NCBI GenBank assembly: GCA_964458565.1
Contig: CAYWJO010000012.1
Span: 1 to 23,278 of the forward strand
Length of the DNA stretch: 23,278 nucleotides
Direction: 5' to 3'
DNA from: an uncultured archaeon
GTDB lineage: Archaea; Asgardarchaeota; Thorarchaeia; Thorarchaeales; Thorarchaeaceae
Shown here one piece after another: positions 2,987 to 6,137 of the stretch. Position 1 is the first letter of the stretch. Each line of letters opens with the position of its first letter. The notes below the pieces were generated by a model, which saw only the letters and a program-made list of their open reading frames with translations, was not told the DNA's origin and did no database searches. A program made the translations under genes and the position numbers.

Positions 2987-4960
2987 GTGCCGGTCTTTAC
3001 GGATAAGTCTGGAGAAGAAACTGTAATTAAACATCCAGATGGTAACATAACTAAAGGCCATATCAGATGGACAGATGATGGTCCTATCCTTACTCTGGAA
3101 GATGGTCGAGTTATTCGTGAAGAATTAGGATACATCTATCGAGTCCAGAAGAAAATTGTGATTGATAATTTAGGCAAAAGTGTAGAGGTTCCCTTGGGTG
3201 AAGAAATCGAACTTGAATTCAAGCCTTATCATAATTCGACTCGTCCCTATGCTAAAGGAATGGCTCAGACTGATGTCATGATTTGGCCTCCTCCCAAGGG
3301 AGAACTACAAGGACGCTCTGGTGGTTGGTATGGACGGATGGTTCAGGGAGAGGATCCTACGAACTACTTCCTTCAAAGAATGTGCGAATTTGAGGATTCG
3401 TGGTTAACAATAATTTCGGATAACATGAGTCTGGAATCACATCCGATTGCTCCTTACGAAACACCTGCTCTCACTATGGATGATGACTTGTTAGCATATA
3501 AGAAAATGATAGATTACTTACCAGATCTGAGCGAGGATCGAACTAAGATTCTCGCTATTCTTGATACACCTCCTCCTGATTTTGCAAAACTTGCATCTAT
3601 TACTGAGAAGACTCCAGGAATTTATCCAAAACTTGGGTTAACCATGCGACAATCCTTGAACTCAATAATCCCCATGAATTTTGAAGATTCTGTTCGAGAG
3701 GATATAATGGTCTTCATCGCATGGATGTTAACCAATAGTCTTCCTCACGGTGATCCTGTAGAGCTTTTCGAATCTTTGATTTCTGTCCCTACCGCGAAAG
3801 CTCTTCTTGAAATCCATTATGTTCGAGAAGCAATTGGATTACCTCCACTAGATTACATTAATATTCTTCATACGAAAATTGGGTACACCCGAGGAATTTA
3901 TGAACGTGATTCTTTAGTACGTCAAATTGTTACAGCATACCCCCTAGATATGATCAACAAACAAATGGTAGACATTATCAAATATCTAAACGCGGGTCAA
4001 TCAATTCCGAATGGACTACCTATCACAAAAGAACAAGCTGTTGAATCCCAACAGAAGTGGAATACTCGTGCTTTGCTATACTGGAACGGAGTTAGATTAG
4101 AACTTATTCCAAAATTAGATACGATTGGTTTACGCGAAGTTGTATTTCATGGATCTGCGCATCAATGGCCTCATACACATTTAGCTTGGTCTGGTTTATT
4201 ACCTGATATTGGTGACATAAAGAGATTCAGTTCAATGATAATGCCAGTTGAAGCTGCAGAGCGGACAACTCGCAGAAGTGGTTCTGCTATCATTAATCAT
4301 TATATTCGTGCAGATAATTGGGATTTATATGATACAGAAAGATCTAGATGGACTCTTGAATCCAGACTCACTGCTGCTGTGAATGGCCAGAGGTCTTATG
4401 ACAAGTTTTGTAGTGACTTCAAGCTAAAAAAACCTTCAAGGGTACAAATGATAACTCCCGATGAGGGGAAGGCACTTGATCTATCACAATCTCCAGGTAT
4501 CTATTTAGATAAGTTTGAGAGCCCTCAGCGTGCATATCGATTCGGTTCAACCACGAATTTACATAAAACACTCAATGGTCTTTTATCAAAAAATCTATGT
4601 GAAATTCGATATACAATCACAACTCAATTCTTCTTGGGGCTATATACTCGTTTAAGCGGAGAAGCTTCACGGGTTTTATCTACAACCTCAGGAATTCTGA
4701 AACATACTCCCTTCAGTTCAGTCCGTATTGCTGATAACGGTCAACTTGCATTTATTGTTTCTAGGTTACCACAATATTTAGTAGATCAATATACAAGCAC
4801 ACTTCTTGGAGGGCTTGATTCAAACGATCTTATTGTTGAGATATCGAGACTTCAAGCTATGAGATCATATAGGAGCAATCTTTTCCAAAGGTTAGGAAAG
4901 ATCGATGGTGGATGGGTCGATGATATTGATAAGTGGCTTATTCAAGGTCGCACTGATTAA
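2987..4960 (+). CDS. Large hypothetical protein with probable C-terminal winged-HTH + Lrp/AsnC-like module (putative regulator)
   Basis: 657-aa ORF, GTG start after GAGG/GGAG, TTTTATA box at ~2952. The C-terminal ~170 aa align by eye with the C-terminus of 11026..12681. The ORF is solid; the function is inferred. Confidence 0.7.
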   Translation: MPVFTDKSGEETVIKHPDGNITKGHIRWTDDGPILTLEDGRVIREELGYIYRVQKKIVIDNLGKSVEVPLGEEIELEFKPYHNSTRPYAKGMAQTDVMIWPPPKGELQGRSGGWYGRMVQGEDPTNYFLQRMCEFEDSWLTIISDNMSLESHPIAPYETPALTMDDDLLAYKKMIDYLPDLSEDRTKILAILDTPPPDFAKLASITEKTPGIYPKLGLTMRQSLNSIIPMNFEDSVREDIMVFIAWMLTNSLPHGDPVELFESLISVPTAKALLEIHYVREAIGLPPLDYINILHTKIGYTRGIYERDSLVRQIVTAYPLDMINKQMVDIIKYLNAGQSIPNGLPITKEQAVESQQKWNTRALLYWNGVRLELIPKLDTIGLREVVFHGSAHQWPHTHLAWSGLLPDIGDIKRFSSMIMPVEAAERTTRRSGSAIINHYIRADNWDLYDTERSRWTLESRLTAAVNGQRSYDKFCSDFKLKKPSRVQMITPDEGKALDLSQSPGIYLDKFESPQRAYRFGSTTNLHKTLNGLLSKNLCEIRYTITTQFFLGLYTRLSGEASRVLSTTSGILKHTPFSSVRIADNGQLAFIVSRLPQYLVDQYTSTLLGGLDSNDLIVEISRLQAMRSYRSNLFQRLGKIDGGWVDDIDKWLIQGRTD

Positions 4961-5040
4961 TTTATGATACAACCAATTCAATAAAGCTCAATAGATTGCA
5001 GTTCAATCCTTATAATGTCCTCTTTATTCTACTCATGTAT

Positions 5041-5061
5041 TTCATATATTCTATATGAATT
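5041..5061. promoter_or_regulatory. Palindromic putative operator TTCATATA-ttc-TATATGAA upstream of the micropeptide gene
   Basis: Perfect 8-bp inverted repeat (5041-5048/5052-5059). 5044-5061 recurs at 5347-5364 with 17/18 identity. Confidence 0.4.
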
Positions 5062-5162
5062 TTTAACATTTTTTGATGTAATATTGGAAATTGTTCATCA
5101 TCGAAGTTTCGATTCCATCATGATTCTCTAAGTTGTGTAAGAACATTAGGTGAAAACTGAAA

Positions 5163-5246
5163 ATGATGTACAATGATCCCCTCAACGGTCCAGAAATTCC
5201 TTGGAATACTGAAGATCCATTAAACGGTCCTGAAATTCCTTGGTGA
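5163..5246 (+). CDS. 27-aa micropeptide MMYNDPLNGPEIPWNTEDPLNGPEIPW with duplicated core (candidate signal peptide or RiPP-like precursor)
   Basis: AGGTGA RBS at 5148-5153, ATG at 5163, TGA at 5244-5246. The two 30-nt core copies differ at 4 positions, all synonymous in this frame. Followed by hairpins and a T-tract. Confidence 0.78.
   Translation: MMYNDPLNGPEIPWNTEDPLNGPEIPW
5175..5243 (+). repeat. Direct repeat, 2 x 30 nt with 39-nt period, encoding DPLNGPEIPW
   Basis: gatcccctcaacggtccagaaattccttgg (5175-5204) vs gatccattaaacggtcctgaaattccttgg (5214-5243), 26/30 identical. Confidence 0.95.
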
Positions 5247-5252
5247 AAACAC

Positions 5253-5322
5253 CGAAGCATCTTAACCTGAAAGGATGCTTCGTTGCTCCGAGCGTATGCT
5301 ACGGAGCATTACCTTCTTTTTT
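5253..5322 (+). terminator. Tandem hairpins plus T-tract after the micropeptide gene
   Basis: CGAAGCATC/GATGCTTCG (5253-5261/5274-5282). TGCTCCG-AGC-gtat-GCT-a-CGGAGCA (5284-5308). Then CTTCTTTTTT. Confidence 0.7.
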
Positions 5323-5346
5323 ATATCAAATAAATATCAGTCCATA

Positions 5347-5364
5347 ATATATTTTATATGAATT
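5347..5364. promoter_or_regulatory. Second copy of the ATATATTYTATATGAATT motif, upstream of the 7-TM gene
   Basis: 17/18 match to 5044-5061. Lies ~47 nt upstream of a TTTTTAAG TATA-like box (5411-5418). Confidence 0.35.
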
Positions 5365-5450
5365 AGGGCTCTAATAACATCTAAAAACAAAAAAAGGGAA
5401 TTTTGGGGTGTTTTTAAGCCAATGAGATGATAAATGAGGGAGTGAGTAAA

Positions 5451-6137
5451 ATGCAAACATTCGAGTTGGCCCTTGGTGCTAATCTGGTTAGTAGCTTGGT
5501 ATCAGCGCTAGTCGCGATATTCCTCCTACATCTCTGGTATAGACAAGAAAATAGGATCTATACAGACCTCCCTCTTGTATTCAGTATCACATTCATCTCC
5601 ATGGCTTTGAATGCCATGCTTCAATACTTGACCATTGGTGGTCTGGTTCCTGATAGTATGGAGACTTTTCGATTGCGTGCGATGTTCATCAGCGGTTCAG
5701 CACTGCCTCTACTTGCAGCTCTCCTAAACATATGGCTCCCACGAATTGAACGTTATCATTTACGAATCATGATTCTTTCAATCGTCTATTGGACTGGAGT
5801 TTCGCTCTTTGGTCCCACTGATGTACTAATCATGAGTCTATTGATCCCTCTCCTATTGATCTTCTCATTGGGAATGTTAGTAACATTTGCGATTACGTGG
5901 AAGACTGGTCGACTAAAAGAAGTTCGAAGTGAACTGATGGTTGTTTCACTAGCTATTGGGTTTGTATCACAAGCTCTTAAGCTTCCTCTTCAAGCTGCAG
6001 GATTTGACTGGCTAGTAGTCAGCATTGCTGCCATGACTGCAGTGATAGCTGCTGTTGCACTTGCCAATCCTTGGTACCGTAGAAATCTCTCCCATACAAG
6101 TGTAGCATTAGATGCGACCTATCCACTACCACACTAA
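5451..6137 (+). CDS. Stand-alone 7-transmembrane membrane protein (sensor/receptor-like)
   Basis: Seven hydrophobic segments by eye, short loops, ANPWY ending TM7 and a short basic tail. ATG 5451 follows GGGAGTGA (alternative start 5427). Confidence 0.75.
   Translation: MQTFELALGANLVSSLVSALVAIFLLHLWYRQENRIYTDLPLVFSITFISMALNAMLQYLTIGGLVPDSMETFRLRAMFISGSALPLLAALLNIWLPRIERYHLRIMILSIVYWTGVSLFGPTDVLIMSLLIPLLLIFSLGMLVTFAITWKTGRLKEVRSELMVVSLAIGFVSQALKLPLQAAGFDWLVVSIAAMTAVIAAVALANPWYRRNLSHTSVALDATYPLPH

Follow-up and report, generated by a model that had tools for sequence, protein, structure and literature searches.

The window analysed here, meaning the whole stretch of 23,278 nucleotides (nt), is contig CAYWJO010000012.1 of an uncultured archaeon of the family Thorarchaeaceae, one of the Asgard archaea (assembly GCA_964458565.1). 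It is contig C12 of a 93-contig genome of 3.7 Mb that is 93% complete; the DNA sequencing runs listed as holding window DNA are salt-marsh metagenomes, and no RNA run is among those listed. The system in question consists of a gene for a micropeptide with a repeated core, a gene for a 657-amino-acid (aa) protein that we call big657, and a gene for a seven-transmembrane (7-TM) protein. The original prediction, made from the sequence alone, placed these three co-oriented neighbours in one peptide-signalling circuit. All three genes are present on the + strand, and two of them, the peptide gene and big657, form a two-gene cassette across the whole family. The features of the locus, in window positions, are:

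2987-4960, + strand: big657, a cytoplasmic 657-aa protein from the list of open reading frames (ORFs)
5044-5061, + strand: copy 1 of an AT-rich 18-nt motif, about 100 nt before the peptide start
5148-5153, + strand: AGGTGA, a Shine-Dalgarno-like site 9 nt ahead of the peptide ATG
5163-5246, + strand: micropeptide gene of 27 codons (a 4-residue head, DPLNGPEIPW, a 3-residue spacer, DPLNGPEIPW, stop)
5250-5323, + strand: two hairpins and a run of T, the first hairpin (5250-5285) starting 4 nt past the peptide stop
5347-5364, + strand: copy 2 of the 18-nt motif, 87 nt ahead of the conserved 7-TM start
5427-6137, + strand: 7-TM gene, given here as an ORF; by homolog alignment the start common to homologs is at 5451 (228 aa)

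The identical decapeptides of the micropeptide are encoded by two 30-nt direct repeats (5175-5204 and 5214-5243) with 87% DNA identity. As read from its sequence, the product is short, acidic, hydrophilic and proline-rich, without a hydrophobic stretch and, as had been stated originally, without a signal sequence. The hairpins and T-run that follow the gene are terminator-like in sequence, or possibly an attenuator. A related locus, L003, has the same order as the window: a large gene (36% identical), a 27-codon ORF, a 7-TM gene (61%) and a gene for a metallo-beta-lactamase-fold (MBL) hydrolase (62%). The L003 ORF also carries two decapeptide cores, of diverged sequence and with the common plan D-P-x3-P-[DE]-[IL]-[PS]-[WF], and it is missing from the called genes of the public record behind this locus.

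A scan of the window's own genome found four proline-rich, acidic small ORFs ending in Pro-Trp, two of which are two-core genes, one on contig C12 (the window) and one on contig C11. The C11 gene (G000:C11:13922-14008, + strand; L070) has one extra head residue and one Ile-to-Leu change. This copy stands alone: the 1.1-kb gap that holds it separates unrelated genes, it has a hairpin and T-run to itself, and the gene after it is convergent. It is therefore not merely a leader for a downstream gene. Any pair of the four core copies in this genome shows 3-7 synonymous codon differences and at most one Ile/Leu change. Because the differences are almost all synonymous, this codon comparison indicates that the peptide gene is real and that its product is under purifying selection. 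A DNA pattern for the peptide tail gave 48 matches, compared with 21 for a reversed-pattern control. ORFs with this tail pattern occur in many genera; among them are ORFs of 12 codons, ORFs of 37 codons immediately ahead of big657 homologs, and the C11 gene.

The pairing of such ORFs with big657 was examined in 60 fetched big657 loci from all 16 genera of the family. We counted ORFs that start with ATG, have 10-80 codons, end in Pro-Trp or Pro-Phe (with 0-3 further residues) and lie on the same strand within 600 nt upstream of the big657 homolog. Such an ORF was present in 44 of the 60 loci (35 under a strict rule), whereas the controls gave 5/60 for the reverse complement, 2/60 downstream and 2.7/60 for shuffles. 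The ORFs have 12-66 codons and typically lie 150-300 nt before the big657 homolog. At least 10 of them carry 2-4 tandem cores, each with an aromatic end, and seven have 2-3 residues past the Trp. GGTGA- or AGTGA-type sites precede many of their starts at a distance like that in the window. Compared with shuffles, the 70 nt 3' of the homologous peptide ORFs have more structure (median z -2.5), and five or more consecutive T occur within 130 nt after the ORF in 24 of 41 loci.

The negative control was u551, which is remotely paralogous to big657. In none of 25 u551 loci did a small ORF with a Pro-Trp, Pro-Phe or Pro-Tyr end lie upstream, and the pairing is specific to big657, since this paralog has no peptide ORF. 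The co-occurrence of all three genes that had been proposed thus stands in part: the peptide accompanies big657 far above the 2-6/60 of the controls, and the 7-TM gene, described below, does not share in this.

The big657 family has 130 representatives in an exhaustive HMMER search, mostly of 650-690 aa. A profile of 64 members places it in 75 of 86 genomes of the taxonomic family, again in all 16 genera, with 1-3 copies each; in a word-indexed homolog search, the only relative among named records came from 'Candidatus Thorarchaeota archaeon'. The protein goes unrecognised by sequence libraries. Pfam and NCBIfam gave no match for big657, one weak MarR_2 match among the 64 family members, and no TPR domain match in either; the Lrp/AsnC sequence signature (HTH_AsnC-type or AsnC_trans_reg) was not found in big657 by Pfam, and the family profile reached the sequence of PDB entry 4ch7 merely at an E value of 0.12.

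The AlphaFold2 model of big657, built from the 64-sequence alignment, has a pLDDT of 91.5 and a pTM of 0.89. A Foldseek search with this model gave the siroheme decarboxylase NirDL (4ch7; E 5e-5, 353 columns) as the only significant PDB match, followed by single-module Lrp/AsnC regulators at probabilities of 0.95-0.97 (2efn, 7fby). VIA-align aligned 4czc_A at Z 10.1 over 258 aa across residues 322-652, and the Lrp factors 8q90_B, 1ri7_A and 2e7w_A at Z 6.4-7.0 over 138-139 aa of residues 489-636. The C-terminal half of big657 (about residues 322-652) is thereby modelled as two tandem Lrp/AsnC modules, each a winged helix-turn-helix (wHTH) with a RAM domain, in a NirDL-like arrangement. This supports, at the level of the fold, the DNA-binding C-terminus that had been put forward. 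The N-terminal part (1-320) is beta-rich and helical; the fold-search rows cover just 322-652, and a protein structure atlas search with residues 1-320 returned no usable match. In the first RAM-like domain, the family has a nearly invariant A-H-x-W-P-H-x-H stretch, which could be a ligand pocket.

The 18-nt motif, which the original prediction had noted ahead of the peptide and 7-TM genes, has two copies that are identical at 17 of 18 bases, and with up to 2 mismatches allowed they are the sole two occurrences in the 3.7-Mb genome. When the two spacers were simulated 300 times with a first-order Markov model, a 17/18 match was attained once. In L003 a 23-nt imperfect direct repeat (74%; 8155-8177 and 8454-8476), different in sequence from the window motif, lies at the equivalent positions before the peptide gene and before the 7-TM gene, with a spacing of 299 nt compared with 303 nt in the window. 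The 18-nt element may be a common promoter or operator element of the peptide and 7-TM genes, and its presence at both suggests common control of the peptide gene and the operon that the 7-TM gene probably forms with the MBL gene. A sigma-70-type promoter scan stayed at chance level.

The AlphaFold2 model of the 7-TM protein has a pLDDT of 87.2. VIA-align matched it to designed folds resembling G-protein-coupled receptors (GPCRs) at Z 15.2 and 14.4, and to GPCR 7TM domains at Z 11.7-13.4 (200-215 of 228 aa, rmsd 3.7-4.2), where a Z below about 13 for helical bundles may reflect a mere common arrangement. The top Foldseek matches were all GPCRs, with weak E values of 5e-3 to 2.5e-2. Outside Asgard, the ESM Atlas neighbours were 7TM input domains of bacterial histidine kinases, SpoIIE phosphatases and GGDEF proteins (TM 0.66-0.71). 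These matches to GPCRs and to sensor input domains make 'receptor-like', the term used in the original prediction, a fair description of the modelled fold, though helical bundles match easily.

Invariant residues of the 7-TM family include D-L-P following helix 1, E-V-R-S ahead of helix 6 and, where helix 7 ends, N-P-W (which reads N-P-W-Y in the window). The class-A GPCR microswitches (DRY in helix 3 and NPxxY in helix 7) are not matched: N-P-W and E-V-R-S differ from them in spacing or position. A Pfam scan gave no 7TMR-DISM or HisKA_7TM match, just sub-threshold CcmF_C and DUF5985, and NCBIfam gave none. The window protein stands alone, having no other domain and no fused kinase, GGDEF or PP2C output.

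The 7-TM family is found in 79 of 85 related genomes and frequently has several copies; the window's own genome has four paralogs. An Rce1-like CPBP protease adjoins the 7-TM gene or is fused to it in 21 of 29 loci; Pfam confirmed the CPBP partner in six loci and in a 550-aa fusion on contig C1 of the same genome. The fusion proteins have 543-550 aa (G000:C1:65107-66759, - strand, L035; also L023, L024, L028 and L033). The 7TM and CPBP pairing is an uncharacterised membrane module that joins a sensor fold to a protease, and almost all genomes of the family have it. The window, L003 and a paralog on contig C7 make up a subgroup with an MBL hydrolase rather than CPBP downstream of the 7-TM gene; the C7 pair (G000:C7:51300-53226; L034) is 60% and 53% identical to the 7-TM and MBL proteins of the window. 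This pair adjoins a tRNA-like sequence and a TnpB/Cas12f-like gene. This setting hints that it was duplicated via a mobile element.

About 12 of 75 genomes, spread over six genera, have a 7-TM gene no more than 10 kb away from big657, compared with a rough chance expectation of 1-2; one lies within 3 kb in 4 of the 60 fetched loci. No tandem-repeat small ORF was found beside the 29 7-TM homologs. The 7-TM gene is an occasional neighbour of the peptide cassette, not a fixed third member.

The other genes considered in the window are:

162-2789, - strand: penicillin-amidase-family Ntn hydrolase (Pfam), a divergent member of its family, transcribed divergently from big657 across a 197-nt spacer
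6154-7023, + strand: MBL hydrolase (Pfam Lactamase_B, 1.5e-9), 16 nt after the 7-TM stop
7102-8025, - strand: ThiF-type adenylyltransferase (Pfam)
8038-9726, - strand: GH3-type amido-synthetase (Pfam), 12 nt from the ThiF gene
10277-11029, + strand: u250, a 250-aa protein (ORF) whose homologs recur beside big657
11026-12681, - strand: u551, the remote big657 paralog, recognised by profile comparison
13373-21346, + strand: a giant 2657-aa protein with a prenyltransferase-type alpha-alpha toroid, then many Ig-like domains (Big_1, Big_3_5, invasin D3)

The MBL start was set from the alignment to the L003 ortholog. ThiF is 74% identical to a homolog at the L003 contig end. GH3 and/or ThiF genes stand beside 7-TM or big657 homologs in L037-L042, and in 11 of the 60 big657 loci GH3 was found no farther than 3 kb away. 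These two carboxylate-activating enzymes recur beside 7TM/CPBP and big657 genes in several genera, and are recurrent, not constant, neighbours of the cassette and of the 7-TM genes. The penicillin amidase was considered as a linked processing enzyme and dropped, because no homolog was found near 65 related loci (the 60 big657 loci and L003, L042, L101, L103 and L104). The window had been said to lack an exporter or a clear processing protease; Pfam found neither, and this divergent Ntn hydrolase was what it did find. An analogy that had been drawn to Agr and ComCDE did not hold up in its parts: no HisKA, HATPase_c or Response_reg domain was found in the scanned window ORFs (those of at least 198 aa and four at the 3' end). 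Rfam and tRNA scans gave no matches, and PADLOC reported no defence system, just generic E1 and MBL domain matches.

The relation of u551 to big657 is visible only by profile comparison (hhalign probability 97.5, E 7.8e-12, 433 columns), BLASTP giving an E value of 0.12. u551 occurs in 57 of 86 genomes, often about 10 kb from big657 on the same contig. Homologs of u250 lie near big657 in L003, L037-L039, L101, L143, L149 and L165; after those at L003:5129-5914 (- strand) and L037:5307-6059 (- strand) come genes for an unknown protein (about 155 aa) and for a RadA/Rad51-like ATPase. Pfam and NCBIfam had no match for u250 or u551.

Small ORFs with similar tails also occur away from big657. In L098 and L100, 12-codon ORFs with a Pro-Trp-type tail are divergent from a conserved protein of about 555 aa that has AsnC-type helix-turn-helix (HTH) matches, and this protein in turn matches the last Lrp module of big657 (hhalign probability 73.6, E 2.9e-5). 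CPBP, GNAT and radical-SAM genes lie near such loci. In the window's own genome, a 12-codon Pro-Trp ORF (C26:14929-14967, + strand; L192) is divergent from wHTH proteins of 362 aa and of 475 aa, the latter with an AsnC-type HTH. A gene for an MFS transporter, possibly an exporter, follows 427 nt after this ORF. A further proline-rich ORF of 15 codons ending in Pro-Trp (C66:11351-11398, - strand; L193) runs divergently from two genes, one encoding a CARF-like wHTH protein and one a 535-aa protein of the 555-aa double-HTH family. The C66 ORF lies directly beside a gene for the CRISPR-associated protein Csa1.

We propose, with a probability of about 40%, that the peptide acts in trans as a ligand of big657, the Lrp-type protein. 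The peptide, either whole or cut after Trp into decapeptides, would be the cognate ligand of big657, and its binding would alter the activity of big657 as a transcription regulator. The proposed targets would include the peptide gene itself and the 7TM-MBL operon, each with the 18-nt element about 90-100 nt before its start. The 7-TM protein would be an accessory neighbour here, which may be under regulation as a target or may help to handle the peptide, and would not be an obligatory receptor; its family normally works with a CPBP protease. An intracellular action of the peptide on the regulator, which had been raised as an option earlier, fits the evidence at least as well as export and autoinduction.

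Several points weigh against the proposal that big657 is regulated by the peptide. The Lrp fold is no proof of regulation, because the best structural match, NirDL, is an enzyme, and the A-H-x-W-P-H-x-H stretch could equally be a metal or catalytic site. The recognition helices are not conserved in the family alignment consensus. The 18-nt motif is particular to this genome, L003 having a weak repeat alone, and the 60 loci come from related genomes, not independent samples. Tandem cores are commoner in processed precursors than in intracellular ligands. Finally, in most loci the small ORF lies upstream of big657 with a structured spacer and a T-run between them, and a cis-acting leader would give a like layout. 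A complex prediction of big657 with the peptide, entered as 5154-5243 with three non-native residues added to reach 30, scored 0.08 against a mark of 0.32, which speaks neither for nor against binding.

The tandem cores and the enzyme-like fold lead to an explanation that we consider doubtful, in which the peptide is a processed precursor similar to those of RiPPs, peptides that ribosomes make and that are modified after translation. The cores would be released by cleavage after each aromatic residue, and the free carboxylate at the C-terminus might be modified or conjugated; big657 would serve as a recognition scaffold or as an enzyme, with a catalytic Lrp fold as in NirDL/AhbAB, and CPBP, the Ntn hydrolase, ThiF and GH3 would act as tailoring enzymes in loose linkage. 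This would suit the many members with 2-4 tandem cores ending in Trp or Phe, their short spacers, and ORFs that usually stop right after the last aromatic residue. It would also suit the enzyme as top fold match of big657, the conserved His-rich stretch, the recurrence of the carboxylate activators ThiF and GH3, and the CPBP, GNAT and radical-SAM genes near the 12-codon-ORF loci. However, most members have a single core in an ORF of 12-17 codons whose head is 2-5 residues long, which leaves no leader for a recognition element, and just the Pro-aromatic end (Trp, Phe or Tyr) is constant, which argues against one defined chemistry. There is no constant tailoring neighbour, the amidase being absent from all 65 related loci searched, and Pfam detects no known RiPP enzyme family here; the sole protein with relatives among RiPP enzymes is the ThiF-type E1 (MccB, PaaA). 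Rather improbable, in our judgement, is a cis-acting leader, in which ribosomes would slow down on the proline-rich ORF at Pro-Pro and Pro-Trp-stop, in a manner sensitive to aIF5A or charged tRNA, and this translation would decide termination at the hairpin and T-run, the gene under control being big657 in most genomes and 7TM-MBL in the window. The same-strand position of the small ORF before big657, the structured spacer with its T-run, and the window hairpin close behind the stop are all as such a leader would have them, and in their proline-rich and Pro-Trp ends the peptides are like arrest motifs already known, for example TnaC and the PPW with which the AZIN1 upstream ORF ends. But some copies are stand-alone or divergent and have no co-oriented downstream gene (the C11 gene and the 12-codon ORFs of L098 and L100), the residues past Trp in some members mean that the stop context is not fixed, and stalling gives no reason for identical tandem cores. 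We know of no case in which leader-peptide attenuation has been established in archaea.

The full three-part pheromone circuit, in which the peptide is exported, sensed by the 7-TM protein at the cell surface and its signal relayed to big657, appears to us very unlikely. It would explain why the three genes are co-oriented in both the window and L003, why the peptide and 7-TM genes have the 18-nt motif in common, and why 7-TM genes lie within 10 kb of big657 more often than by chance, and the 7-TM fold does resemble sensor input domains and GPCRs. Against it, the 7-TM protein lacks an output domain and any link to big657 and is mainly partnered by the CPBP protease, 56 of the 60 cassettes have no 7-TM gene within 3 kb, the other three 7-TM paralogs of the same genome are distant from any peptide gene, and the peptide has no export signal. 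A variant to which we give scarcely any credence has the Pro-Trp peptides as exported pheromones that are matured or sensed by the 7TMR/GPCR-like protein together with the CPBP (Rce1-type) protease, with big657 as the intracellular effector. If it were true, a GPCR-like receptor and a CAAX-type protease would form a peptide pheromone circuit in the closest prokaryotic relatives of eukaryotes, echoing the logic of fungal mating pheromones.

We know of no demonstration of peptide-based regulation or communication in archaea. Literature searches found no published description of the peptide and big657 cassette, and a survey of archaeal RiPPs mentions the standard classes alone in Asgard.

Compared with the Lrp/AsnC (FFRP) regulators, big657 is predicted to have the same order of a wHTH followed by a RAM domain, which in the regulators forms a small-ligand pocket, and, as in NirDL/AhbAB (4ch7, 4czc), to have this module twice in tandem. 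Unlike either group, it has about 320 extra N-terminal residues and no Pfam sequence match. The known ligands of Lrp and NirDL proteins are free amino acids or a tetrapyrrole, whereas a peptide is proposed here, and Pfam finds no heme-d1 or alternative-heme genes, which would go with NirDL/AhbAB, among the window ORFs. The modelled fold is that of ligand-controlled archaeal regulators, though NirDL shows its use in an enzyme.

Multi-copy precursors are known from the yeast alpha-factor precursor and from cyanobactin and other multi-core RiPP precursors. The micropeptide resembles them in its identical tandem cores, short spacers and a core that ends exactly at the C-terminus. It differs from them in having no leader or recognition sequence, signal peptide, dibasic sites, or linked protease or macrocyclase, and in that most members of its family are single-core. 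RiPP systems are defined by a leader and core and a linked class-defining enzyme; here the heads have 2-5 residues in most members, and ThiF and GH3, which are nearby in the window, are not constant.

The 7-TM protein resembles the 7TMR-DISM_7TM and HisKA_7TM input domains in being a 7-TM bundle (TM 0.66-0.71). It differs from bacterial 7TM receptors in having no kinase, phosphatase or cyclase output, and its partner in the window is an MBL hydrolase, not CPBP. Elsewhere in its family, the fused or adjoining Rce1-like protease belongs to a class that matures peptides or sorting signals in other systems. MroQ, which acts in Agr peptide maturation, is a CPBP protease. Myxosortase is likewise a CPBP/Rce1-type intramembrane protease (PMC11980579).

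A close parallel to the proposed action of the peptide on big657 is with the RRNPPA peptide-receptor systems of Bacillota. In Rgg/SHP and RopB/LCP, as in the cassette, a very small and often unannotated ORF lies next to the gene for a cytoplasmic regulator, and a genome may hold several paralogous pairs (PMC10518010). A small peptide gene adjoining the receptor gene, the arrangement that characterises RRNPPA systems, was found in 44 of the 60 loci (controls: 2-6), and also in the window and L003. RRNPPA peptides act through their C-terminal ends; the Pro-aromatic end of the cassette peptides may be likened to this, binding being putative here. The differences are that the partner has an Lrp/AsnC fold without TPR or XRE-HTH domains, that the host is an archaeon, that the cassette peptides are acidic and proline-rich and not hydrophobic, and that no Opp-type importer or PptAB-type exporter is linked to the cassette. 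The classical RRNPPA propeptide, with its secretion signal and protease sites, is not matched by the 27-aa peptide; the leaderless communication peptide (LCP) subclass likewise lacks both. The streptococcal members of this subclass (RopB/LCP, SIP) have no secretion leader and are 8 residues long (PMC10518010). If the proposal is true, the family-wide, multi-copy pairing of a peptide of 12-66 residues with an Lrp-fold protein would reveal a class of micro-genes missed by gene callers, and would add a new receptor fold to the peptide-regulator systems.

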